Virus genome (UHGV): UHGV-0035288
Strand: one strand, 5' to 3'
Source of the DNA: a virus
Length of the DNA stretch: 44,443 nucleotides
In this document: in pieces, positions 735 to 40,515 of the stretch
Layout of the letters: every line of letters begins with the position of its first letter
Position numbering within the stretch: position 1 is the first letter of the stretch
The notes under the pieces: generated by a model
The model's input: the letters and a program-made list of their open reading frames with translations, nothing else
Databases searched by the model: none
What the model was told of the DNA's origin: nothing
Made by a program: the position numbers and the translations under genes

Positions 735-1201
735 AATTACTGATTTGCGATTTGGATGGCGTTATTAACGGCTCAAGCGATGCGCGTGCCGACCTGGTGC
801 CTGGCATAAAAACTAAATCCACCTTTTGGGCGAAGTGGCACAAAGCGCATATACGCGAAGATCTGAACATGGATATGCTGCCGCTGCTGACCATGTACAA
901 AGAGCAAGGCTTCGAGATCGCGTATCTGACCAACCGGCAGCGAGAATGTTGGGACACCACCGCCGAGCAATTGGAGGTATTCCCGGTAGGCCGGTTGTTT
1001 ATGCGCCACATGCTGGACGACACCCCGCCACCTGAGTTTAAGGCGTGCGCCGTGTTCAAAATGGTGTGCTATGCCGACGTGTCGGAACTGGTCATCATTG
1101 AAGACTGTCCGAAGAACATCGCGGCAATTCGTCGGGCGTGCGGCGATCTGGTCCCGAAGATTTATGCGATAAACGTTGCAAAATTCACTTGCAACCAATA
1201 G
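731..1201 (+). CDS. HAD-superfamily hydrolase (phosphatase-like)
   Basis: AGGAG at 721-725 then ATG 731. N-terminal LICDLDGV matches HAD motif I (DxDG). Confidence 0.55.
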   Translation: MKLLICDLDGVINGSSDARADLVPGIKTKSTFWAKWHKAHIREDLNMDMLPLLTMYKEQGFEIAYLTNRQRECWDTTAEQLEVFPVGRLFMRHMLDDTPPPEFKACAVFKMVCYADVSELVIIEDCPKNIAAIRRACGDLVPKIYAINVAKFTCNQ

Positions 1202-1211
1202 GTTGGTTGCA
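1190..1211. promoter_or_regulatory. perfect inverted repeat TGCAACCAA-TAGG-TTGGTTGCA (paired copy of the recurrent TTGGTTGCA motif)
   Basis: Read directly at 1190-1198 and 1203-1211; overlaps stop codon of the HAD gene and precedes gene at 1266. Confidence 0.5.
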
Positions 1212-1265
1212 GTATCTTAACCACATCGGGAGGCAATACCGCCTCCCACTAAAACGGAAAACATC

Positions 1266-1757
1266 ATGAAAGCATACGAATACTGCAAAAACGCCGCCAC
1301 CACTATGGAACAGCGCGGGAAAGAAAACGGCTATGACAACGCGAAAGAAGAACGCAGCGCTAAACAGATCGCCGCCGTGTTTAACGCGCTTACCGGGCGC
1401 GACCTGTCCGAGCAAGAAGCCTGGACCTTCCTGATCTGCCTGAAGCTGGTGCGCCAGCACCGTAAGCACCAGGAAGATAATATCGTGGACCTGGTAGCGT
1501 ATGCCGCCCTGCTGGGCGAATCTTACATGACCGTGCATGATGAGATTCAGATCGACACAACGGCAGCACAATTCGAAAGCCTAAAAGGCTGGCATTCTTC
1601 CGCGGGCAAGACTGTTAAGGCCCGCGATTTTGGGGTCGTAGCCCCGGACGTCCAGCCTATGGTCGTGCTCACCGGCGAAGACGGGTCGAAAATCTGCATG
1701 ACGCAGGAAGATTTCCGCAACATGGAAAAAACACTGGTGACTGGCGCACTTAAATAA
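1266..1757 (+). CDS. hypothetical protein
   Basis: ATG at 1266; 163-aa ORF in early arm; no motif recognised with confidence. Confidence 0.5.
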   Translation: MKAYEYCKNAATTMEQRGKENGYDNAKEERSAKQIAAVFNALTGRDLSEQEAWTFLICLKLVRQHRKHQEDNIVDLVAYAALLGESYMTVHDEIQIDTTAAQFESLKGWHSSAGKTVKARDFGVVAPDVQPMVVLTGEDGSKICMTQEDFRNMEKTLVTGALK

Positions 1758-1799
1758 TTCTAATCGCGGGCCGAAGCCCGCATCAACGAGGACCACACG

Positions 1800-2375
1800 A
1801 TGTACGGCGAATATGAAATATCTGGTAAACAATTCCACCTGGCGGCAATGATCGCAAGCATCGAGTTTGACCAGTGGCGATACAAGTCCGACGCTTGCAA
1901 GCAAAGCCGTCTGGTCGGTGTGCTGGGTGAGATGTTTGCGGGCATGTACCTCGAAGGGCAGGCGGGCGGGCGTAGCTGTATCCCGCAAGGTTTGCTAATG
2001 CGTACCGGCCTGTTTAGCGCTAACACTATCGACCGCGGCGATATTATCATGGTCGGCAAGCGCAAGGTAAAATCCGGTCCCGACTTCCGCGAACATGTGA
2101 TCGATGCCGTCTGGACCTACGAGGTTAAGGCCACCAGCGGCATCCGTCGCGGACTGGTAGAGGCGCGTTGCGCCCGCGAATATCTTGCTCGTCGAGTTGC
2201 CGGTGTTATCCTGGTAGGCGTAGATTTCGGACAACATAGCGCGCACGGCGTGATCGAGGATATCGCAGAACCTTACGTCATTGTTAATGACTGGCCCTTA
2301 GTGGAAGTGGACGGGAAGGAGTATTACGAAAGCCCGCTGGTGCGGCGCAAAATGGACTGGGAAAACTCAAACTAA
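1800..2375 (+). CDS. hypothetical protein
   Basis: GAGGA SD then ATG 1800; 191-aa ORF, last gene before convergent terminator. Confidence 0.5.
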   Translation: MYGEYEISGKQFHLAAMIASIEFDQWRYKSDACKQSRLVGVLGEMFAGMYLEGQAGGRSCIPQGLLMRTGLFSANTIDRGDIIMVGKRKVKSGPDFREHVIDAVWTYEVKATSGIRRGLVEARCAREYLARRVAGVILVGVDFGQHSAHGVIEDIAEPYVIVNDWPLVEVDGKEYYESPLVRRKMDWENSN

Positions 2376-2401
2376 AAAAGGGGCCGCACGGCCCCTTCTG
2401 T
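2374..2401. terminator. bidirectional rho-independent terminator
   Basis: GGGGCC-GCAC-GGCCCC hairpin (2380-2395) flanked by A6 upstream and T-rich run downstream; sits between convergent genes ending at 2375 (+) and 2402 (-). Confidence 0.6.
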
Positions 2402-4123
2402 TTATTTCTTCAACGCCGCGATCTCGGACTTCAACTCCCCCACCTGCTTATTGAGATATTGAATACACCCCATCAAGTCCATCACGATCGGGTTAACGTC
2501 TACGGACGGTCGGTCTACCGTTTTCTCCCCGATCTTGTTGCCGTCTTCGTCGAGGATATCCTCGACGGGTACTTCGATGTGCTTGATGTATTGCGGCGCG
2601 ATTAACTCCGCTTCTTCGGCGATAATACCGAAGCGACGGCGTCCCTTCTCGTCATCCTTGTACACGAAGTTAACAAGACGCTGGCGGCTAATGCGGTCCA
2701 TGGCCTCGCTTGCGTCTGCCTCGGCAATATCTTTCTTATACTCGCGACCCGACGTACCTTGCAGCGCGAGAATTCCGCCGCTGGTTGGGAATGTTACAAT
2801 GATTTGCCCCGTGTTGCTTCCATCCCCGCGTCGCCTAATAAGGTTGACCGTAGATATGACCCCATCTTCCCCCGATACTTCCATTATTGTCCTTGCGCCA
2901 ACCTGCGTATCCGGCGTGGCATACCTATTCGATTTAAAGGTTACGCCAGGGTATCCCTGGTTCTGGATAGTAATAACCCCGTCGGAGTCAATTGGACCCA
3001 AAGAACGCAGGTTTTTCGCCGAGAAAGTGCCCAGGTCATTAAAATCATAAACGGCGGTGCGGTCGGTTGTTCGGTTGTACACACTCAGGCGCGCGTAGTA
3101 TTCAGCCCCGATCGCCGCTCTGATACGCCAGGCCATGTTCGCTTCTTGAATCCCATTAACGTTGTAACGAGAATAGATCCCCCCGCCGTCAATGGTAGTG
3201 CCGACTGAGGGTTGGGTGGCGTCTTCTTTTATTACCGTCCAGCTATTAGTCGCAGTGCCCGCGTCTAGTAAGGACAGCGCCCAGCGCTTAGTCGCGGCAT
3301 CCAGATCCGCAATGGGGTCCGATCCGACTCGAAGCGGGCCGGGAGGCATAAGGTTCCCCCACGACGCCGTTTTATCAGCAAGCCCAGCAAGGTTGCCGGA
3401 TTTGGTTAGCAGGTTATCCACGTTAACGCTTTGCGCCCACTCCTCGGCCTGATCGCGGAATCCCTGAGCGGCAGTGCTGGCAGCTTGCGCGTCCATCTTC
3501 GCAGTGTTGGCCTCATCCCTCATAACGCTGGTGTCAGCCTTGATCTGGTTCGTCTGGTCTTTGATGGCCTGCGTATCAGTCTTAATCTGGTTGGTCTGCG
3601 TCTTGATGGTATTGGTGTCGTTTTTGAAGCCTTCGGCCTCATTGCGAAATCCTTGCGCTGCTGCTTCCGATGCGGCGGCTTGTTGTTGCAGGTTGCGCAT
3701 CTCAACCGGGTCTACGTTCTTAAGCAATTCCGACAGGTAGCCCCATGACATACCCTGCATGACTTGCCCGTTCGGTAGCGTTACCGTGATTTCTTCAGCG
3801 TCTCCGAAGATTGCACGCCAGTTGTTTTCATCTGCGATCATCAAGCGCAACGCTTTCTGTGCCTGTACGGTAACGCCCATAGTTGCCAGCGACATGGTAT
3901 CGCGCTTAACGCCATCCCACGCGAGGCCGGTTGCCGTTGGGCCGTCGAACGGAAGCACCAGCGTTAGCGCGGTTGCACTTTCAATGGACGCAATCGCTAC
4001 GGTGTAGGGTACTTGGCCCACCACCAGCGTTAAGAAGTCGCCAGCTTTAAACGCCGTAAACGTTGTTCCGACCCCGACAACCGCCTTGCTGTTATTCGTT
4101 ACGGATAGTGTACCCGCTGCCAT
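2402..4123 (-). CDS. tail fiber with C-terminal intramolecular chaperone (peptidase S74-like) domain
   Basis: Start moved to ATG at 4123 (GAGGA SD 7 nt upstream). N-terminus MAAGTLSVTNNSKAVVGVGTTF is a phage fiber anchor-type motif; central heptad-like repeats (QTNQIKTDTQAIKDQTNQIK); C-terminal block (...RLVNFVYKDDEKGRRRFGIIAEE...) resembles the self-cleaving chaperone of endosialidase-type fibers. Confidence 0.75.
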   Translation of the reverse strand: MAAGTLSVTNNSKAVVGVGTTFTAFKAGDFLTLVVGQVPYTVAIASIESATALTLVLPFDGPTATGLAWDGVKRDTMSLATMGVTVQAQKALRLMIADENNWRAIFGDAEEITVTLPNGQVMQGMSWGYLSELLKNVDPVEMRNLQQQAAASEAAAQGFRNEAEGFKNDTNTIKTQTNQIKTDTQAIKDQTNQIKADTSVMRDEANTAKMDAQAASTAAQGFRDQAEEWAQSVNVDNLLTKSGNLAGLADKTASWGNLMPPGPLRVGSDPIADLDAATKRWALSLLDAGTATNSWTVIKEDATQPSVGTTIDGGGIYSRYNVNGIQEANMAWRIRAAIGAEYYARLSVYNRTTDRTAVYDFNDLGTFSAKNLRSLGPIDSDGVITIQNQGYPGVTFKSNRYATPDTQVGARTIMEVSGEDGVISTVNLIRRRGDGSNTGQIIVTFPTSGGILALQGTSGREYKKDIAEADASEAMDRISRQRLVNFVYKDDEKGRRRFGIIAEEAELIAPQYIKHIEVPVEDILDEDGNKIGEKTVDRPSVDVNPIVMDLMGCIQYLNKQVGELKSEIAALKK

Positions 4124-31450: not shown

Positions 31451-33715
31451 TTAATCTTTTAAATCGTCATCGGTCGCTAAAAGCGTGATAGGGATATCCG
31501 ATTTGATGACCAAATTAGACGACCCATAGATGGCCCCGGTGTGTGGATCGGTGTAAAAACCTATCACTCCTCGCTCCACCATATCGTCGATTGCCTTCGT
31601 CGAAGTGCCACCTTTTGCCAGCCCAGCCTGGCGGACAATTGCCGATTTACTGAATCCAGTATGGTCCGGGTTATCTTCCATCAGTTTTTCCAGTGCCGCA
31701 TAAAGCACTTTCTCTTTTTCGTTGCGCGGTCCGGCGGTGTTCTCTTCCTTAACCGCGGCCTTGCCTGCCGCCTTCGCCTGTTCAATAGCGAACGGTGCCA
31801 GGGCAACCGGTACGAGGTAGAGAGTCTCGTCGCGTGGCGTGGAGGCAATCGGCTTGACGTCCCAACCGGCAACCACGTCACCGAAGTCTGGCCCGGTGCT
31901 GGTGGACTGGTGCGCCTCGAACGCCTCAGATTTGCGGAGATCCACCTTCACCTTGCACTTGAGCAGGACGAAGCCGCGCGGCGCTTGCTTGATGCCGTTA
32001 CGTGACTTCTCATGATACAGGTTCAATTGTCCGGGCTGGTTGTCGTCCGGCTGTTCCAGGAAGAACGCAGAATCGACAGCACCATGCAGCGCGCCGGACC
32101 CGCGTGGCGTTCTGCTGCCGTTTGCACCTTTAGCCGGGTGGTGGATGACGCCCGCACTGCCACCTGTATTTTCCGCGATGGCCTTCAGCGCTTTGACCAC
32201 TTCACCCATATCGCTGGCGTTGTTCTCGTCGAACGGTTTAGCCTCGGCGGACCGCAACGCAACAGTCTGGTTGAGTGAGTCGAACGCCACCAGGCCAACC
32301 GGTTCGCCATTAGCGGTGCGGTTGATAAAGCTGATAACTTCGCGCAAGCCCGATTTGCTGGTGATATCCCAGCCGCGTGACTGCAGATCGATAATGTGCA
32401 GCTTGTCCAGGTCGTGCTCATATTTAATCTGCAATGCTTCTTTACGCTGGTTGGAGGCTTCGCCACCTTCCGCGTCGAAATAGAAGCAATGAGACTGGAC
32501 GACCTTCGCACCGCCAAACGGAATACCCGCGGCAACCGCGCCCATCTGGCCCAGCACGTAGAAAGACTTACCGATATTCGACTCACCCGCCATGTACCAG
32601 GTCGATTTAAAGTTAATCAACCCCTCGATAATCGGGTCGTGCTTACTGAACAGCGCAACCGGCTCGTTATCCAGATCCGCATCGGTGCACCCGCCATATT
32701 CTTCGCCGTCGCCAACCGCATCAACAATATGTTCATATAAGGATTCGACTTCCTCGTCGTCCAGCCCCGGAAGGATGGCGGCGATTTGCTTACGGGACAT
32801 ATTGTGTGGCTCGACGTTCAGGTGGTCCGGTATCCCGATGAGACGTAGCGCCAGGTGCTGGTGTCTATTTAGCTCCGAGCAACACTCGTTGCCGGTGTGC
32901 ATACACTTGAAACGGATCTCGCCATCCTTAACCATGATAGCCGTCGACCCTTCGCCGCTGTGCAGATGTTCGTTCGGGCACGGCACTTCATAGCCCCGCC
33001 CGGAAGATAACTCCTCGAATCCTGCCTGGAAGCACCAGTCCAGAATGCCGTCTGCCACTGCGTCGTCGCCCTGGGTCAGTTCGCGGCGAACTTCCTCCTT
33101 CTCCACGCCCAACTTATCCGCCAGGCGGAGCAGACGACGGACGCGGGCGCGCTTGCCATAGTGGCACTTAATAACAGACTGCTGGTGTGGCAGGTACATC
33201 AGGCGGTTCGTGTCTTTCGTGCAATCGTCGAAGTCCACATCTGACAGACCCAGTTGGTGTAATAGTGCATACTGGACGCGGCCCAGGTCTTCTGCCGGTA
33301 CAGGCTTGTCCGTGAGCACCAGGAAACGGGCGCAACGCGTGCCGCCTTTCAGCGGGTGGCGGTCGCCGGTTGTGGTGTGAAAGACGTGCTCCAGTCCCGC
33401 GTCGATGAACGCCTTACGGCAGCGGCGTAGGGTGCGGGTGTCGGTACGGTCTATATCGAAGAACAGGATCGAGCGGTCCACCGCACTGGTCTTACGACGC
33501 AATCCGTCACTGGTATATGCCACGATGCCGTCGGCCTTACGCTTGCGGCGCGCATACTCGGCTTTATCTTCCGTTTTGTTGATATGCACCGAGGAGATTT
33601 CTTTCGCATCATTGATAAATTCGAAAAACTCTTCGGTAGTCATCTGGAAGTTTTCCGCCCTGGCTTTTTCGCCTTTTTTAGCGGGTCTTGTTACAGCGAA
33701 TTTAATTAAGCTCAT
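31451..33715 (-). CDS. DNA primase-helicase (N-terminal primase-polymerase-like domain, C-terminal P-loop helicase)
   Basis: 754 aa; Walker A-like GESNIGKS in C-terminal half, acidic and Cys/His-containing N-terminal half; ATG 33715. Confidence 0.75.
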   Translation of the reverse strand: MSLIKFAVTRPAKKGEKARAENFQMTTEEFFEFINDAKEISSVHINKTEDKAEYARRKRKADGIVAYTSDGLRRKTSAVDRSILFFDIDRTDTRTLRRCRKAFIDAGLEHVFHTTTGDRHPLKGGTRCARFLVLTDKPVPAEDLGRVQYALLHQLGLSDVDFDDCTKDTNRLMYLPHQQSVIKCHYGKRARVRRLLRLADKLGVEKEEVRRELTQGDDAVADGILDWCFQAGFEELSSGRGYEVPCPNEHLHSGEGSTAIMVKDGEIRFKCMHTGNECCSELNRHQHLALRLIGIPDHLNVEPHNMSRKQIAAILPGLDDEEVESLYEHIVDAVGDGEEYGGCTDADLDNEPVALFSKHDPIIEGLINFKSTWYMAGESNIGKSFYVLGQMGAVAAGIPFGGAKVVQSHCFYFDAEGGEASNQRKEALQIKYEHDLDKLHIIDLQSRGWDITSKSGLREVISFINRTANGEPVGLVAFDSLNQTVALRSAEAKPFDENNASDMGEVVKALKAIAENTGGSAGVIHHPAKGANGSRTPRGSGALHGAVDSAFFLEQPDDNQPGQLNLYHEKSRNGIKQAPRGFVLLKCKVKVDLRKSEAFEAHQSTSTGPDFGDVVAGWDVKPIASTPRDETLYLVPVALAPFAIEQAKAAGKAAVKEENTAGPRNEKEKVLYAALEKLMEDNPDHTGFSKSAIVRQAGLAKGGTSTKAIDDMVERGVIGFYTDPHTGAIYGSSNLVIKSDIPITLLATDDDLKD

Positions 33716-34458: not shown

Positions 34459-34974
34459 ATGTTTGAACAAATCGTAAACCTGATTACTCGCGGCGTAGTA
34501 GCACTGGAAACCATCGCTAAGCATTATGAAACCGTTGGCGCTGCCGTTGGTAAGCAGGAAGACAAGAAGCCGTCTAAGGTGAAAAAAGAAGTCGTAGAAG
34601 ATGACGACGATGAAACCGAAGACGAAAAACCGGCGAAAACCAAAAAATCCACAGCGAAAGGCAAGGCCAAAAAAGAAGTCGTAGAAGATGACGACGATGA
34701 AGCCGAAGACGAAAAACCAGCGAAGGGTAAAAAAGCTCCGGCGAAAGGCAAAGGCAAGAAAGATGCCGATCCGCTGGCGGAGATGCGCGACGAAATCAAA
34801 CAATATGCCGCTATTATCGCTGGTGGTGACGACGACGACGCGAACGACGAATTTGACGACCTGCTGGAATCGTTCGAGATCAAATCAATCGCCAAGCTGG
34901 AAGATGAAGACGTCGAAGACTTCCACAAAGATCTTAAAGAAATCGTCGAAACTTATTTCGAACTGGAAGATTAA
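34459..34974 (+). CDS. highly acidic tandem-repeat protein (first early gene)
   Basis: GGAGA SD then ATG 34459; 171 aa; duplicated block KEVVEDDDDE(T/A)EDEKPAK (DNA repeat at about 34584-34634 and 34668-34718); strongly acidic overall. Confidence 0.6.
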   Translation: MFEQIVNLITRGVVALETIAKHYETVGAAVGKQEDKKPSKVKKEVVEDDDDETEDEKPAKTKKSTAKGKAKKEVVEDDDDEAEDEKPAKGKKAPAKGKGKKDADPLAEMRDEIKQYAAIIAGGDDDDANDEFDDLLESFEIKSIAKLEDEDVEDFHKDLKEIVETYFELED

Positions 34975-35274: not shown

Positions 35275-35463
35275 ATGGCTATATTCTTTGTTTTATTTCG
35301 TTGCCGTATTACCGGCGATGAGCAACCGGAAATCGTTATGAATCAGAACTGGAATTGCTGCTGGACTCAAGCCAGAGGTTTGGCGGCTACCATGAACGAA
35401 GCCGCGAAGCGGGCTGGGGTTAAACATGAATATTACATTGCTCAGTTTTCAAGGGTGGAATAA
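35275..35463 (+). CDS. hypothetical small protein
   Basis: 62 aa; ATG directly after upstream stop; Cys/Trp-rich; weak. Confidence 0.35.
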   Translation: MAIFFVLFRCRITGDEQPEIVMNQNWNCCWTQARGLAATMNEAAKRAGVKHEYYIAQFSRVE

Positions 35464-36893
35464 TGGCAATTAAACCAAAACGTAAAACGCAATCCGGTAG
35501 CAATACGGAACACTCATTACTTGGGCCATCCGGTGCTAAAAAGTGGATGGGTTGCCCTGCTGCCCTGGTGGTGGAAAAAGATATCCCGAACGAATCCGGG
35601 CAAGCCGCGATTAACGGTACGAGTATGCACACCGTATCTGAAGTGGTGCTAAACCGCATTATCGCCGGGGAGAAGCTGATAACCGCGAAGACGTATAAAG
35701 GGTGCTACGTCGAGAACGAAGGCAAGGGGCCGGTAAAGGCACACCCGAAAGCACCGAAAGGCGGCGTACTGGTCAACGACGACATGGTGAAACAGTGCGA
35801 CGCGTACATCGACCACTGGCGACCGCTCCTCGAAGTGGCGGAGTTTGTTCAGCTTGAGATGCGCGCCGATCTGACCCGCGTCCTTCACTCAGGCTACGAG
35901 ATCGACGGCAACAGGATTAAAACGTTCGGTACTGCCGATATGGTCATGGTCATGAAAAAGACCGATGGGACGTACATGCTGATTGTTGGCGACCTGAAGA
36001 CCGGGCGGCATAAGGTCGAGGCGAAAGAGAACAAACAGCTTATGTTGTACGCGCTCGGCCTGCTGCGCAAGCTGCAAACTATGTACGACATTACGACCGT
36101 GCGCCTGGTTATCTTCCAGCCGTATTGCGGTGGGGCGTCGGAGTGGGATATTTCGGTAGAAGCTCTGGAGATATTCGCGAAGTTTGCATCCAAGCGCGCT
36201 ATTGCCGCACTGGAGGCGTATTCCCGAGGCAAGAAGGGGCTTACCCGTGCCGACTTCCGCCCCAGCGTTGATGCGTGCCAGTGGTGCCGATTTGCGGATC
36301 AGTGTAGTGCCCGCGCTAAGGCCGCAATCGACACGATGACACCCCCAACGGCAACCGACGAAGACCTGGGCGACGACGTGAGTATTGCGACAGAGGAAGA
36401 ATGCGCCAACCATGACCGCAATATGGCCCGCGAAGCCAGGAAGGCGGCACGACGTGCGAAGCGCGGTAAGAAAGAAGCGGCCCCCGGTGCTATGAGCGCG
36501 GCGGAACTGCGCAAGGCTTATGAAGGCCTGGACGCAATGCGCCAGCACATCAAGGCTATCGAGTCCGCGGTATTCAAGGCGGTCATGGCGGGCGAAGGCG
36601 AATCGCTGGGCCTTAAGATGGTTGCCGGTAAGGAAGGGATCCGTAAGTGGGCGGACGAGAGCGAAGTGATTGAAATCTTCACGAAGGCCCGGATCAAGCG
36701 CGATGTGATGTACAAAGAAACATTGCTCAGCCCGACAGATGCCGAGAAGGTATTGAAGGACGAAAAACCAAAAGTGTGGGCGAAGCTGTGTGATAAAATC
36801 ACGCGCGCACCTGCCAAACCGGTGTTAGCTCCAATCGACGACCCGCGCCCTGCGTGGTCGGAAGCTACTGACGAGGACTTAAGCAATGAATAA
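35463..36893 (+). CDS. PD-(D/E)XK-type nuclease (DUF2800-like, Cas4/RecB-like)
   Basis: 476 aa; N-terminus HSLLGPSGAKKWMGCPA is the characteristic start of this family; C-terminal Cys cluster (CQWCRFADQC); TAATG coupling to upstream gene. Confidence 0.65.
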   Translation: MAIKPKRKTQSGSNTEHSLLGPSGAKKWMGCPAALVVEKDIPNESGQAAINGTSMHTVSEVVLNRIIAGEKLITAKTYKGCYVENEGKGPVKAHPKAPKGGVLVNDDMVKQCDAYIDHWRPLLEVAEFVQLEMRADLTRVLHSGYEIDGNRIKTFGTADMVMVMKKTDGTYMLIVGDLKTGRHKVEAKENKQLMLYALGLLRKLQTMYDITTVRLVIFQPYCGGASEWDISVEALEIFAKFASKRAIAALEAYSRGKKGLTRADFRPSVDACQWCRFADQCSARAKAAIDTMTPPTATDEDLGDDVSIATEEECANHDRNMAREARKAARRAKRGKKEAAPGAMSAAELRKAYEGLDAMRQHIKAIESAVFKAVMAGEGESLGLKMVAGKEGIRKWADESEVIEIFTKARIKRDVMYKETLLSPTDAEKVLKDEKPKVWAKLCDKITRAPAKPVLAPIDDPRPAWSEATDEDLSNE

Positions 36894-37128
36894 AGTATTC
36901 GCAATCTTATTGATGTTTTTGCTCGGCGCGCTGGGCTTTATCCTGCATTGCGTGCAAGGCGTGTTAATGGTGGCGTGGATGATTCGCCATCCGACCCGCT
37001 GGCTGGATGACGGCTATAGCGAAGTTGCCGTCGATTGGGTGGAAAAGAACATCGAACGCCCGCCGCTAAGCTGGATCGAGAACGCTACCAACTACGTGAC
37101 CAGAAATCTTTTTAATGAAAATGCTTGA
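36886..37128 (+). CDS. small membrane protein
   Basis: 80 aa; GAGGA SD; hydrophobic N-terminus (VFAILLMFLLGALGFIL). Confidence 0.4.
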   Translation: MNKVFAILLMFLLGALGFILHCVQGVLMVAWMIRHPTRWLDDGYSEVAVDWVEKNIERPPLSWIENATNYVTRNLFNENA

Positions 37129-37153
37129 CCGCTTAGGCGCAACCAAGTAGATT
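37125..37153 (+). promoter_or_regulatory. sigma70-like promoter (TTGACC-17-TAGATT) with GCAACCAAG motifs
   Basis: -35 at 37125-37130, -10 at 37148-37153; GCAACCAAG at 37137-37147 and 37154-37163. Confidence 0.5.
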
Positions 37154-37218
37154 AGCAACCAAGCCGAACGGGGTGGCTTCCAATAACCCCGATACATGTG
37201 AAAATGAGGAATTGGAAA

Positions 37219-37998
37219 ATGGCTAAAGTCAACCTGAAAAATGTGCGTGTATGTTTCCTTAAAATTTGGGAACGTGATACCCCTAAACAGGATGGACAAA
37301 AACCGGCATACCGCGCCGTGATTCTTCTTGATAAAGAAGATCCGCAGGTGGACAAAGTGGAAGCGGCAGCGCGCGCAGTGCTCACCGACAAGCTGAAATC
37401 CGAGAAGAATGCCGATAAGTGGATGGACCGCCACTACGCCCAGGATTCTAAGGAATGCGCAGTCCGCGACGGTGACGAGCGCGACGAAGTAACCGAAGAA
37501 TTCGAAGGCATGTTGTACATCAACGCTAAATCGTTCAAACAGCCGAACATCCAAACGTCACTGGGCGAGAAGCAGACCGAGCAAGGTCTGACCGTAGAAG
37601 GCGACGAGATCGAAGGCCAGGAAATCTATTCCGGTTGTTATTGCAACGTGTCACTGGATATTTGGGCGTGGAACAACACCAACGGTAAGGGACTCGGTGC
37701 TGGTCTTTTGGGTCTGCGATTCCGCGTCGACGGCGAAGCCTTCGGCGGTGGCGGGTCTTCTTGCTCGGACGAGGACCTGGGCGACGATGACGAAGATGAA
37801 AGCCCGCGCAAGTCCAAAAAGTCAAAACGTCGTGATGACGATGATGAAGACGACAAGCCGCGCAAGTCCAAAAAGTCCAAGCGCCGCGATGACGACGACG
37901 ATGATGAAACACCTCGCAAACGTCGTAAGCCACGCGATGACGAAGATGAGGACGACGACGACGAAGACAAAGCACCGCGTAAACGTCGCCGCCGTTAA
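37219..37998 (+). CDS. single-stranded DNA-binding protein (DUF2815-like) with Lys/Arg-Asp/Glu repeat tail
   Basis: Track start is GTG 37198; ATG 37219 has GAGGA SD. N-terminus MAKVNLKNVRV typical of this SSB family; C-terminal 90 aa are alternating basic/acidic repeats (PRKSKKSKRRDDDDEDD x2, ending KRRRR). Confidence 0.6.
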   Translation: MAKVNLKNVRVCFLKIWERDTPKQDGQKPAYRAVILLDKEDPQVDKVEAAARAVLTDKLKSEKNADKWMDRHYAQDSKECAVRDGDERDEVTEEFEGMLYINAKSFKQPNIQTSLGEKQTEQGLTVEGDEIEGQEIYSGCYCNVSLDIWAWNNTNGKGLGAGLLGLRFRVDGEAFGGGGSSCSDEDLGDDDEDESPRKSKKSKRRDDDDEDDKPRKSKKSKRRDDDDDDETPRKRRKPRDDEDEDDDDEDKAPRKRRRR

Positions 37999-38017
37999 GG
38001 GCAAAGCCCACTATTCA

Positions 38018-38041
38018 AGCCCGCTTAATGCGGGCTTTTTA
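38018..38041 (+). terminator. rho-independent terminator
   Basis: AGCCCGC-TTAAT-GCGGGCT followed by T5. Confidence 0.65.
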
Positions 38042-38056
38042 ATAGGACAATGAAAA

Positions 38057-38227
38057 ATGCGCATTAAAGCCAGCGAAGTAAAAGTCGGAATGCAGGTATG
38101 GTCCAAATTGCTGGGCGAGTATTTCACCGTTGCCGAGATTCGCAACAATGGCGAAGAGATTGCCCTGTCTGACGGCATCTTCTCCATGATCGGCAGCGCT
38201 GACGCCGTAGTGAGGATTAAGCAATGA
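38057..38227 (+). CDS. small hypothetical protein (56 aa)
   Basis: AGGA SD then ATG 38057; MRIKASEVKVGMQVWSKLLGEYFTVAEIRNNGEEIALSDGIFSMIGSADAVVRIKQ; stop overlaps polymerase ATG (ATGA); below ORF-track cutoff. Confidence 0.4.
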   Translation: MRIKASEVKVGMQVWSKLLGEYFTVAEIRNNGEEIALSDGIFSMIGSADAVVRIKQ

Positions 38228-40515
38228 AAGACTTCGAACGCCTTTTTCTCGATACCGAGACATTTAGCGGGGTGGACCTGAAGAAAGTGGGCGCATACGC
38301 CTACGCAGAACACCCAACAACCGAGATTATGATTTGCACGTACGCCATAGACGAGGGCCGCGTGCAGACATGGGATTGCACCGAGTCCCCAACAATGCCG
38401 CGTGAACTGCGCAAGGCGCTCCGCCAGGTATCCCGCAAGAAAGCAAAAATAGTGATGGCTAACGGCCTCCTGTTTGACCGCCTGGTTATTCGCGAGAAGT
38501 GGGGCATTGACCTGCCGGTAGGCCAGATCGAGGATACCATGATTATGGCCTTTCGCCACGCGCTGCCGGGTAGCCTCGATATGCAGTGCCAGGTGTTGGG
38601 CGTCGACGCAGAGCACGCGAAGGATAAGGCGGGCAAGGCGCTGATCAAACGATTCTGTAAGCCAACCCCCAAGACCTACAAAATCCGCCGCTACACGCGC
38701 GAGACGCACCCCGAGGAGTGGGCTAAATTCCTGCGCTATGCCGCACTGGATATTATAGCGATGAGGGAAGTCTATTGGCGCATACCGGACTGGGGTAACA
38801 CGCCGAAGGAAGATGAAATCCTGCTTATTGACCAGTTGATCAACGACCGCGGCTTCTATGTGGACGTTGACCTGGCGAACGCCGCGATCAAAGCGGTGCA
38901 GGCGCATAAGGAAGAATTGAAGGAAGAAGCATGGGAGCGCTTCGGCGGTAAGCTGACAGGCAATGACTTCCTGCCAGCGCTGCGCGACCTGGCGCCTGCG
39001 TTCACAATCCACAACGCGCAGAAATCCACGCTTAACGACCTGCTGGAAGACCCGGACTTCCCCGACGAGGGCAAAGTGCTTATCGAGATGCGCCTCGGTG
39101 CGTCATCAACGGCATCGACTAAGTACAATCCGCTCGTTAATGGCTTATCCGCAGATGGTCGCCGTCGTGGGTGTCTCCAGTATGGCGGGGCGAAACGCAC
39201 GCTACGCTGGGCGGGCAAAGGCTTCCAGCCGCAAAACCTGGCACGCGGCGAGTATAGCGACGACCACGAAGGGAAGATTAAGCGCCGTGAAGGCGAGAGC
39301 GACGTTTCTTTTTGGGTCCGGTCGCACATGCTCACCAACGGCATCAACTCCCTGTTACGCGGGACAGCGCACTGGGCGTATGACATATCGAAGTTAACGG
39401 CCTCGACCGTTCGCGGGTGCATTATCCCGGCTAAGGGCAAGAAGTTTGTTGTAGCTGACTATTCTAACGTGGAAGGTCGCGGGCTTGCCTGGATCGCTGG
39501 TGAGAAAACCGCGCTAATGGTGTTTAGGGCGGGTCGCGATATCTATTGTGAAACTGCCGGTAAGATGTTTGGCCTCGACCCGGAATACATCAAAGCCAAC
39601 CGCAAAGACTTACGCCAGATTGGTAAGGCGTGCGAATTGGGGCTGGGTTATGGTGGCGGCGTTGCGGCGTTCCTGCAGTTTGCTAAAAACCTGGGCCTCG
39701 ACCTGTATGCGATGGCGGACGTCATGAAGGGCACATTCCCCGATCATATTTGGGCAGCGGCGAAACGGGGCTATGAATACGCCCGCATTAACGAAGCTAA
39801 GCGCCCGCCGAAGCCTGGCAAGAAAGACGAGCGCCCAACTTACATACTGCCGAAAAACGTGTGGTTGACGTGTGACGCGATCAAACGTATGTGGCGTGAG
39901 GCCCACCCGAAGACGGTAGCCTTTTGGGCAGAGCTTGAGGACGCGGTGTTGTGCGCAATCCGCAATCCGGGCAAAGCATACTGGGCTGGCGCGAACGTTC
40001 GCCCGGATGGTAAGAAAGCGCTCAAGATAGTCCGCACGAAGGCGAAGCATGACCCAACCTTCGACGAGGAGCGCGACGACCCGAACGCCGCAGGGTGGTG
40101 GTTGAAAATTGAGTTGCCGTCAGGGCGCATCATGAGCTATCCGGGCATTGCGCTGTCTGTCACTACCGAGATCGACGAAGATACCGGCAAGAAACGCACC
40201 AGCACCCGCATCAAATACCAGGGCGAGAATCAGACGACGCGCCAGTGGGGCTTCCAGTATACCTACGGCGGCAAACTGACGGAAAACATCGTGCAGGCGC
40301 TGTGTCGCGATATCCTCGCGTGGTCCATGCCTGGCGTTGAAGCCGCGGGGTATGAAATAGTCTTATCAGTGCACGATGAATTGATCACCGAAGTTCCGGA
40401 TACTGACGACTACACTACCGAGGAATTGTGCTCGCTGATGTGTGACCTGCCGATTTGGGCGAAAGGCTTCCCGCTTGCTGCGGAAGGCGACATTATGTAC
40501 AGGTACAGGAAATAA
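38224..40515 (+). CDS. DNA polymerase, family A, with N-terminal 3'-5' exonuclease domain
   Basis: 763 aa; GAGGA SD; Exo I motif FLDTETFSG near N-terminus; polymerase motif C SVHDELITEV near C-terminus. Confidence 0.9.
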   Translation: MKDFERLFLDTETFSGVDLKKVGAYAYAEHPTTEIMICTYAIDEGRVQTWDCTESPTMPRELRKALRQVSRKKAKIVMANGLLFDRLVIREKWGIDLPVGQIEDTMIMAFRHALPGSLDMQCQVLGVDAEHAKDKAGKALIKRFCKPTPKTYKIRRYTRETHPEEWAKFLRYAALDIIAMREVYWRIPDWGNTPKEDEILLIDQLINDRGFYVDVDLANAAIKAVQAHKEELKEEAWERFGGKLTGNDFLPALRDLAPAFTIHNAQKSTLNDLLEDPDFPDEGKVLIEMRLGASSTASTKYNPLVNGLSADGRRRGCLQYGGAKRTLRWAGKGFQPQNLARGEYSDDHEGKIKRREGESDVSFWVRSHMLTNGINSLLRGTAHWAYDISKLTASTVRGCIIPAKGKKFVVADYSNVEGRGLAWIAGEKTALMVFRAGRDIYCETAGKMFGLDPEYIKANRKDLRQIGKACELGLGYGGGVAAFLQFAKNLGLDLYAMADVMKGTFPDHIWAAAKRGYEYARINEAKRPPKPGKKDERPTYILPKNVWLTCDAIKRMWREAHPKTVAFWAELEDAVLCAIRNPGKAYWAGANVRPDGKKALKIVRTKAKHDPTFDEERDDPNAAGWWLKIELPSGRIMSYPGIALSVTTEIDEDTGKKRTSTRIKYQGENQTTRQWGFQYTYGGKLTENIVQALCRDILAWSMPGVEAAGYEIVLSVHDELITEVPDTDDYTTEELCSLMCDLPIWAKGFPLAAEGDIMYRYRK

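Follow-up and report, generated by a model that had tools for sequence, protein, structure and literature searches.

The SSB (single-stranded DNA-binding protein) encoded in the virus genome UHGV-0035288 carries a C-terminal tail in which, judging from alignments, the acidic-hydrophobic motif typical of its relatives is kept next to the OB fold and is followed by alternating basic and acidic blocks that end in KRRRR. This tail is a real, conserved and recurrent variant that is apparently undescribed; no paper on a mixed-charge tail was found in the literature on DUF2815, DUF2800 and polyampholytes together with SSB. The stretch of DNA analysed, referred to here as the window, is the 44,443-nucleotide (nt) sequence of this genome, which is a Dhillonvirus; its SSB gene is matched by 155 phage records with 80-96% DNA identity. 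An initial annotation, made from the sequence alone, had described the product as an OB-fold SSB of the DUF2815 type with a repetitive tail ending in a basic tip in place of the acidic interaction element, and had suggested that this tail could serve to recruit partners or to condense nucleic acids. The fold and the repeats are borne out by the analysis, the loss of the acidic element is not. Coordinates of all features are collected in Table 1.

The Pfam family PF10991 (Enc34_ssDNA-bd, formerly DUF2815) matches with 108.8 bits (cut-off 26, E=3e-31) over residues 3-193 and profile positions 2-172 of 176, and PHROG 112, 'Gp2.5-like ssDNA binding and annealing protein', matches with E=3e-51. A sequence search of the PDB returns 4klk, 4jg2 and the Enc34 SSB 5odj/5odk (best E=8e-13). 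In an AlphaFold2 model built on 76 homologues, residues 1-175 reach a predicted local distance difference test score (pLDDT) of 94-98 per 10-residue block. The only significant Foldseek matches of this model in the PDB are 4klk (DUF2815; E=1.4e-12, TM-score 0.76 on the target), 5odl (E=4.8e-12, 0.72) together with 5odj/5odk, 4jg2, and 1je5 (T7 gp2.5; E=2.7e-6), and the predicted N-terminal domain is an OB fold. Y137, F168 and F175 are conserved in at least 90% of the 76 homologues. Assignment as an E. coli-type SSB was rejected: PF00436 gives no match at E<=0.01, there is no D-D-D-I-P-F-type tip, and E. coli and mitochondrial SSB structures reach only E>0.4 in Foldseek. NCBIfam gives no match for the SSB or for three proteins encoded nearby (a 171-amino-acid (aa) protein, the exonuclease and a 56-aa protein). 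The orthologue in the RefSeq Dhillonvirus SSL2009a is annotated as a gp2.5-like SSB. The ATG lies 8 nt past GAGGA (37206-37210), and the MAKVNLK start is common to the orthologues of SECphi4/18. The protein almost certainly belongs to the known Enc34/T7-gp2.5 type, a membership that stands on the domain. A preference for single-stranded DNA (ssDNA) would agree with the behaviour of the near-identical SECphi4 protein, which activates the SSB-sensing Retron-Eco8.

The 84-residue tail (residues 176-259) is composed, in this order, of GGGGSSCS, DEDLGDDDEDE, RKSKKSKRR, DDDDEDD, KPRKSKKSKRR, DDDDDDE, RKRRKPR, DDEDEDDDDED and KAPRKRRRR, that is, four acidic and four basic blocks after a hinge. The initial annotation had given the fold 170 aa and the tail 90 aa; the fold extends to about residue 175 and roughly the first 19 of the 84 tail residues are hinge and acidic motif. 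With 34 Asp/Glu and 28 Lys/Arg, 62 of the 84 residues are charged (net charge -6), and the charged fraction of the extension is about 74%. Charges are strongly segregated: the parameter kappa is about 0.56, against a mean of 0.11 in composition-preserving shuffles, none of 2000 of which reaches the observed value. From residue 176 onwards pLDDT is 45-60 (45-57 in the repeat region) without secondary structure, and the tail is predicted to be disordered. Charged fraction, near-zero net charge and block segregation place it among blocky polyampholytes, which is a physico-chemical class and not one of homology. The block map, kappa and Tandem Repeats Finder all recover the imperfect acidic and basic repeats with a basic end that had been noticed, and the direct DNA repeats reported around 37800-37900 correspond to a 54-nt unit whose two full copies are 83% identical to each other. 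Four acid-Pro-basic units lie in register in the tail DNA, spaced by 54, 54 and 63 nt. The KRRRR terminus departs from the acidic/hydrophobic end of the PF10991 family, which is a typical and not a strictly defining feature.

Constraint on the tail was analysed in 16 extracted SSB genes, from 15 Dhillonviruses and the more distant L017. The ratio of nonsynonymous to synonymous substitution (dN/dS) is 0.15 in the tail and 0.115 in the OB fold, at similar proportions of synonymous differences (pS 0.34 and 0.32), which indicates that the tail is under purifying selection rather than drifting. APRKRRRR-COOH is invariant in all 15 Dhillonviruses, preceded by E or K, and the first basic block is nearly invariant. 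Variation consists almost wholly of the in-frame loss of whole blocks, with 2, 3 or 4 basic blocks left (3 in SECphi4, 4 in SECphi18, 2 in the database clusters P0003 and P0004), and length differences are in-frame in all 16 genes. An artefact of sequencing, assembly or annotation can for practical purposes be dismissed as the origin of the tail, and so can a protein that normally ends or changes frame ahead of it. Two database proteins, P0005 and P0007, do have the +1 frame fused to the OB domain, and an alternative open frame spans the repeat; but the same frame, block order and tip are found in 150+ Dhillonvirus records from independent genomes with 90-96% DNA identity, the indels are all multiples of three, the selection is specific to the tail frame, and the two frameshifted forms are single-member clusters as against 537 members in the main cluster. 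They represent either an indel error or a natural tail-less variant, and the P0005 frameshift may be a sequencing error. All six frames are open across the repeat because its GA-rich composition provides no stop codons. A programmed frameshift or a real alternative-frame product was rejected on the same ground and because the frameshifted proteins are singletons.

The distribution of such tails was determined by searching the OB domain alone (residues 1-186) exhaustively against 1.84 billion representatives, which gave 2225 matches at E<=1e-3; tail types were classed in the best 150 of these (50%-identity representatives). About 130 of the 150 carry a classical tail of 20-40 residues with a (D/E)(D/E)F(D/E)DL-type motif just past the fold and a net-negative, hydrophobic-ended terminus, so that the basic tip is as atypical as had been supposed. 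Acid/basic tails are present in 13. An automated classifier counted 14 zwitterionic, 103 acidic and 33 other tails, one of the 14 (P0125) being a 123-aa fragment. A word-indexed search with the whole SSB retrieved many more mixed-charge tails, down to 26% identity. In a neighbour-joining tree of 257 OB domains, these fall into three sets. Group A, made up of the Dhillonvirus clade with its relatives, comprises 60 sequences that have 1-5 basic blocks and mostly end in a basic tip. Group B comprises about 34 sequences; they have 3-12 blocks and still end in a classical DDDVA/DDDDVV/DDDDI tip. The third set is about ten scattered small lineages. The tail state changes at least 14 times by parsimony, compared with about 83 times for shuffled labels, which argues for repeated gain or loss of mixed-charge tails.

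An SSB relative is carried by 659 records of cultured phages. The Jerseyvirus and Kagunavirus proteins end in a minimal form, ...SVDDLEDDEEDEAPRRERRRR-COOH, the arginine-rich tip being kept across OB domains that are only 37-39% identical; related tips (ERPRRRRR, EAPRRERRRR) are found down to 37-50% OB identity. By comparison of these termini, the Dhillonviruses have expanded the unit. Across 111 mixed-charge tails the number of acidic residues follows D/E = 6.3 + 1.19 x K/R (r=0.93), which means a baseline of about six excess negative charges that every further unit shifts by only about -1; in classical tails the net charge is -8.4 +/- 3.3. Pro is preferred at the acid-to-basic junction, Ser within basic blocks and Asp after them. 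Given this regression and these preferences, the tail is best described as a classical acidic tail plus a near-neutral patterned extension. A different kind of repeat was observed in three distant DUF2815 homologues (P0181, P0216 and P0112), whose R/D or RS/D tails (DRGSRSRSRDDDDD, DRDRGRDRRDD) look like eukaryotic RS or mixed-charge domains and not like the K/R-P type of the window.

These data also bear on the view that the repeats are neutral low-complexity sequence, produced by slippage in GA-rich DNA, tolerated for being disordered and charge-balanced, and at most a passive spacer. Copy number does vary, as the initial annotation had suggested checking (2-4 among phages more than 90% identical, 1-12 in the family), a DNA repeat is present, two database entries have frameshifted tails, and six frames are open as composition predicts. 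The constraint data argue against a neutral slippage product: dN/dS differs little between tail and OB fold, and in Dhillonviruses the tip does not vary and the first block hardly does. In addition, acidic and basic counts are tightly coupled, Pro and Asp occupy preferred positions, such tails arise repeatedly in separate lineages, and a second protein of the module has matched repeats (see below). A neutral origin is accordingly rated as improbable.

Retention of the acidic element was followed in an alignment (A2) of 24 group A proteins that are 44-87% identical to the window SSB, the 76-sequence alignment A1 being too diverse to seed a scan. In the window protein the motif SDEDLGDDDEDE adjoins the OB fold. 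D186 is invariant in the 24 proteins, and L187 and D190 are conserved in at least 90%. The segment [ST]D[DE]DL[GD]DD aligns with the classical DDF.DL and occupies the same place as (D/E)(D/E)F(D/E)DL in DUF2815 tails. According to this alignment the classical motif is kept at residues 184-194, not lost. A six-frame scan of the window for D[DE]DL or an F-type equivalent gives six matches, and five of them are in proteins of the replication module, starting at 37768 in the SSB, 36357 and 36870 in the exonuclease, 31460 in the primase-helicase and 34846 in the 171-aa protein (DEFDDL).

The exonuclease, a DUF2800 protein, thus has the SSB-type motif twice, in a linker and three residues from its stop codon. 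The 20 nt of DNA coding for DEDLGDD are 95% identical between the exonuclease and SSB genes. D301, L302, D470, D472 and L473 are invariant in an alignment of exonucleases (A3), and the C-terminal motif is present in 119 of 120 homologues (53-97% identity), a set in which the search returned close relatives only (at least 53% identity) and which is not a family-wide test of that motif. Linker 269-315 and the C-terminus, which hold the two motifs, have low pLDDT in AlphaFold2, a placement that fits short linear motifs. The linker motif is followed by a basic stretch, REARKAARRAKRGKK, and looks like the start of an SSB tail. In the primase-helicase the motif (31460-31471) lies two residues from the stop, and in all group A loci that include the gene end this protein terminates in [AST][DE]xDL.... 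Composition-preserving shuffles give a probability of a C-terminal match of 1e-4 for the exonuclease and 2.5e-4 for the primase-helicase, and of 5e-5 for two motifs in the exonuclease. PolA and the SNF2 helicase have basic C-termini without a DxDL motif.

In nine more distant loci the exonuclease C-terminus resembles the proximal motif of the SSB of the same phage. The respective SSB and exonuclease elements are EEFDDI and DDFDEL in L007, DEFDDL and NDFEDLTA in L040, SKFKDFGEDDEDE and ERFTDFSDEDE in L042, GVDDFES and GVTAEDFS in L044, and DDFDAF and DDFENLT in L046. While distant phages have F-type versions in the two proteins, group A has L in both, and this joint switch is suggestive. As a separate observation on this nuclease family, the DUF2800 nuclease B14T was recently reported as a trigger of retron type IX Sen3 (bioRxiv 10.64898/2026.07.14.737667).

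These findings weigh on the proposal that the basic tip has replaced the acidic tip as a recruitment element and binds an acidic site on a phage replisome or host protein. The classical terminus is indeed missing, and from Guernseyvirinae to Dhillonvirus an arginine-rich terminus is conserved, as short linear binding motifs typically are. A new tip is not needed, though, where the acidic motif is kept upstream and is common to two other replisome proteins. Some clade members end in short acidic tips past the last basic block (...RRRRNRDED, ...RRNYEDDEE), and no candidate acidic receptor was identified, the C-termini of PolA and the SNF2 helicase being basic. Such a replacement is therefore considered rather unlikely.

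A second mixed-charge repeat is encoded upstream of the exonuclease, in the 171-aa protein, for which neither a Pfam match nor a PDB sequence match was found. Its residues 31-102 contain 23 D/E and 22 K/R in blocks (kappa 0.45 versus 0.12, reached by 0 of 1000 shuffles), and the gene has an 87-nt DNA unit repeated x2.1 at 34582-34763. The repeat is followed by a conserved acidic segment, DEFDDLLESF. The repeat unit, DDDDExEDEKPAK.KK, is similar to that of the SSB, DDDDEDDKPRKSKK; as the two repeats share only 61-66% DNA identity, a recent gene conversion was rejected. A homologue whose K/P/E-rich middle differs in length is encoded in all group A loci, and Dhillonviruses also differ in the length of the repeat. 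Distant phages have an analogue in the small gene upstream of the exonuclease, with a charged segment or terminus that mirrors the SSB tail of the same phage. In L045 the small protein contains ...PKSKKAKRNDDDDEDEKPAKKKASAKRSRDDDDD... and the SSB has the same unit type; in L047 it ends in EKPRRRHI and the SSB in ERPRRRSSRL; in L043 the ends are EEDDVV and DDDDVV. In the two phages with classical tails that were examined (L044, L046) the analogue has no charge blocks. Small as this sample of seven loci is, it points to a matching of mixed-charge segments among the proteins of a module, which would fit heterotypic electrostatic pairing better than a role confined to the SSB. In L047, which belongs to group B, a primase/VapE-like protein (735-3524, minus strand) was also observed to end in ...DSDDSDAPEKGRKKKKSRSDRLI, one acid-Pro-basic unit, and this tip resembles the L047 SSB end ERPRRRSSRL.

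Known SSBs share parts of this architecture. Enc34 ORF6 (PF10991; 5ODJ, 5ODK, 5ODL) has the same Pfam family and fold as the window SSB at an identity of only about 22%, and lies in a like neighbourhood (primase, exonuclease-type nuclease, polymerase, VRR-NUC, helicase). In both proteins the disordered C-terminal segment begins with an acidic stretch. The Enc34 tail, however, has about 29 residues, 16 of them acidic, and no basic blocks, whereas the window tail has 84 residues, four basic blocks and a basic terminus. In the Enc34 ORF6 crystal the acidic tail lies in the groove of a neighbouring molecule, and its removal unmasks binding of double-stranded DNA (dsDNA).

T7 gp2.5 (1je5) has an OB fold homologous to that of the window SSB. 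In T7 gp2.5, tail and ssDNA compete for the OB cleft. The tail also stabilises dimers and docks on the polymerase gp5 at its front basic patch, a site to which the C-terminal peptide of the gp4 helicase-primase binds as well. According to reports from the Richardson laboratory, the acidic stretch with terminal Phe that ends T7 gp2.5 is essential. The logic is the same in the window, where an acidic motif is common to several replisome proteins (SSB, primase-helicase and exonuclease). The T7 motif, in contrast, stands at the end of the protein, while that of the window is internal, Leu-based and followed by 65 residues of alternating charge ending in Arg.

In principle E. coli SSB (EcSSB) and the window protein are built alike: to an OB fold each adds a low-complexity region, disordered and variable in length, as well as a short docking motif. 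EcSSB belongs to a different OB family, has a Gly/Gln/Pro-rich linker with hardly any charge, and carries its docking motif at the very end of the protein; in the window SSB the order is reversed, with the motif first and the extension after it. Linker and tip-core contacts have been described as driving cooperativity and condensation of EcSSB. T4 gp32 combines a basic N-terminal cooperativity segment, including the (Lys/Arg)3(Ser/Thr)2 'LAST' motif, with an acidic C-terminal domain for partner binding and auto-inhibition. The K/R/S make-up of the window blocks (RKSKKSKRR) is similar, but the T4 fold is unrelated and its elements are single-copy at opposite ends instead of alternating in tandem. 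Finally, the R/D- and K/E-rich mixed-charge domains of eukaryotic nuclear-body proteins form cohesive multivalent electrostatic interactions. They resemble the window tail in high charge, near-zero net charge and strong segregation, a likeness that is physico-chemical only and implies no homology; pure R/D or RS-D repeats like these are present in the relatives P0181 and P0216. Readings of PRKRRK as a nuclear localisation signal and of RRxS/SxxD as kinase sites were judged coincidental in an E. coli phage.

Taken from the sequence comparisons, the best-supported though still tentative reading is that of a composite tail, in which a docking motif is joined to a multivalent electrostatic extension for cooperativity or replisome clustering. 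The DEDL motif would do the job of the classical acidic tail, filling the OB cleft when DNA is absent and docking on a basic site of a replisome partner. By analogy with T7 gp2.5 and gp4 on gp5, this partner would most likely be the polymerase, which would then also receive the DxDL motif at the ends of the primase-helicase and the exonuclease; the alternative common receptor is the OB cleft of the SSB itself. The nearly charge-neutral units would form a multivalent electrostatic module, whose basic blocks and R-rich tip could pair with acidic blocks, either within one SSB molecule or on its neighbours, with the similar mixed-charge segments of the 171-aa protein and the exonuclease linker or, transiently, with DNA. 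Through such pairing auto-inhibition would be tuned, SSB molecules would bind ssDNA with head-to-tail cooperativity, and the proteins of replication and recombination would be clustered. The number of units would shift when the 54-nt DNA repeat undergoes slippage or unequal recombination, and such shifts would be tolerated within limits. A further-reaching version, in which SSB tail, 171-aa repeat and exonuclease linker zip together as a module-wide device, with DxDL motifs sharing one receptor in a replication-recombination hub or condensate, is speculative and is regarded as a long shot.

The basic blocks and the R-rich tip might instead provide a second surface for nucleic acids (ssDNA, dsDNA or RNA) that touches RNA or the DNA backbone directly and increases affinity, annealing or condensation, with the acidic blocks keeping the tail soluble and auto-inhibited until DNA is met. 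The 28 K/R among 84 residues, the pure Arg/Lys terminal block as the most conserved part, and the annotation of the family as both SSB and annealing protein would suit this function, as would the unmasked dsDNA binding of tail-less Enc34 ORF6, by which tail charge controls selectivity in the family. On the other hand, every basic block has next to it an acidic block at least as large, and the tail keeps a net charge of -6, both of which speak against stable binding to DNA. The classical acidic-hydrophobic tip is retained in group B relatives even with up to 12 units, and the same kind of repeat is present in a non-OB protein of the module. On balance a second nucleic-acid surface is unlikely, if not to be neglected.

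Several points weigh against the composite tail. The motif pattern was defined after it had been seen, and the F-to-L co-variation of SSB and exonuclease counts as roughly a single independent event in evolution; the polymerase is proposed as DxDL receptor purely by analogy. Any single internal block appears dispensable, given 2-4 blocks in close relatives, and no correlation is apparent between SSB block number and 171-aa repeat number among Dhillonviruses, the two varying independently. Of the two proteins with frameshifted tails, P0005 comes from an isolated phage (vB_EcoS-22664B1), and the whole extension may be non-essential if this frameshift is real. The estimate of dN/dS in a low-complexity repeat depends on the alignment, low pLDDT is a proxy for disorder only, the word-indexed sample is biased towards tails that share words with the query, and the tree of OB domains has low resolution and a partly biased sample.

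Near-identical SSBs with the same N-terminus and the same ...PRKRRRR end are encoded by SECphi4, SECphi6 and SECphi18. Escape from Retron-Eco8 maps to the SECphi4 SSB gene (T56P) or its upstream region, one escaper lying in the intergenic region upstream of the gene, and expression of the SECphi4 SSB triggers Retron-Eco8 toxicity (Stokar-Avihail et al., bioRxiv 10.1101/2022.08.27.505566). The same study lists the SSB escape mutations N152H and F106V for another defence system and explicitly omits the SSB tail from its structural figure. T56P, N152H and F106V all lie within the OB fold. Retron-Eco8 senses phage SSBs through its multicopy single-stranded DNA (msDNA), and T7 gp2.5 is also a trigger; in T7, the oligomeric state of the SSB matters for activation. 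For this reason the tail could bear on immune sensing: the SSB triggers Retron-Eco8 and at least one other defence system, and any tail-dependent oligomerisation could influence its recognition.

The replication module of the window is arranged in the order primase-helicase (minus strand), helix-turn-helix protein, 171-aa protein, two small open reading frames (ORFs), DUF2800 exonuclease, 80-aa ORF, SSB, 56-aa ORF, family A polymerase, VRR-NUC and SNF2 helicase. Exonuclease, SSB and polymerase make up the duf2800-gp2.5-polA module that has been described (PMC8093625), whose order is kept in every locus examined, including L041-L051. The polymerase is a divergent PolA, as the Pfam match covers only residues 393-482; for its SECphi4/18 orthologue, Borvo escape mutations have been located in the proofreading cleft (bioRxiv 10.1101/2022.08.27.505566). 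The 80-aa ORF encodes a membrane-type small protein, which is unexpected within a replication module. Upstream of the SSB gene a sigma-70-like promoter candidate was found; the count of such candidates is not above shuffle expectation, and phage Jersey has an annotated promoter at the equivalent place. Directly past the SSB stop codon lies a hairpin with a U-tract (RNA fold -20.6 kcal/mol, z=-3.5) that a simple consensus terminator scan missed and where a terminator is annotated in two relatives. It is probably a terminator or attenuator that separates expression of the SSB from the 56-aa gene and polA. Escape mutations have been listed for the SECphi4/SECphi6 orthologue of the 56-aa gene and for the intergenic region upstream of it, beside those in DNA polymerase (Stokar-Avihail Table S2); polymerase escape mutations are tied to Borvo in the main text of that study. 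The mutations upstream of the 56-aa gene would lie within the hairpin that follows the SSB gene, or close to it.

Table 1 Features of the SSB gene and the surrounding replication module in the window
Feature	Position	Strand	Remarks
Replicative primase-helicase	31451-33715	-	PHROG 3228, Pfam AAA_25; C-terminus ...ATDDDLKD
171-aa protein	34459-34974	+	phrog_3127; mixed-charge tandem repeat residues 31-102 (34549-34764); DEFDDL element 34846-34863
DUF2800 PD-(D/E)XK exonuclease	35463-36893	+	PF10926 E=3e-66; SSB-type motif twice
Exonuclease linker motif TDEDLGDD	36357-36377	+	linker predicted to be disordered; followed by a basic stretch
Exonuclease C-terminal motif TDEDLSNE-COOH	36870-36890	+	three residues from stop
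80-aa ORF, strongly hydrophobic	36886-37128	+	phrog_11211 (MNKVFAILLMFLLGALGFILH...); start overlaps exonuclease gene end
Sigma-70-like promoter candidate TTGACC-17-TAGATT	37125-37153	+	upstream of SSB gene; consensus scan only
SSB gene	37219-37998	+	259 aa plus stop; putative gp2.5/Enc34-type ssDNA-binding, probably annealing, protein
OB-fold domain	37219-37743	+	residues 1-175; AlphaFold2, Foldseek, PDB sequence matches
Poly-Ser open frame	37638-37970	-	across repeat
Alternative open frame MTKMK...	37697-38053	+	+1 frame across repeat
Gly/Ser hinge GGGGSSCS	37744-37767	+	residues 176-183; pLDDT falls here; G177, G178 invariant in alignment A2
Acidic-hydrophobic motif DEDLGDDDEDE	37768-37800	+	residues 184-194; may dock on a partner or bind the OB cleft
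DNA tandem repeat, 54-nt unit x2.4	37783-37909	+	under blocks 1-2; Tandem Repeats Finder score 180, 82% matches
Mixed-charge repeat region	37801-37968	+	residues 195-250; three units, each a basic block (P-R-K-S-K-K-S-K-R-R type) plus an acidic block
Arginine-rich C-terminal tip KAPRKRRRR	37969-37995	+	residues 251-259
Hairpin and U-tract	38017-38041	+	AAGCCCGC-UUAAU-GCGGGCUU; directly past SSB stop codon
56-aa ORF	38057-38227	+	phrog_10102; between SSB gene and polA
Family A DNA polymerase	38224-40515	+	PF00476, PHROG 17

SSB tails are organising hubs of the replisome, and the textbook pattern in phages and bacteria is an acidic tail with a terminal docking tip. A large cultivable group (Dhillonvirus, Jerseyvirus and Kagunavirus) departs from this pattern in a regular and conserved way. 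Two hypotheses are raised that can be tested in E. coli phages amenable to genetics (SECphi4/18 and BASEL Dhillonviruses), namely that the common DxDL motif is the actual docking element and that the charge-patterned extension controls cooperativity or clustering. Should the tail be inert, it would still be a clean example of a low-complexity region that is prone to slippage yet selectively maintained. If the module-wide hub were true, viruses of bacteria would possess a counterpart to the mixed-charge domains of eukaryotes, one that arose repeatedly in DUF2815 phages and whose repeat type is matched between proteins within a genome.

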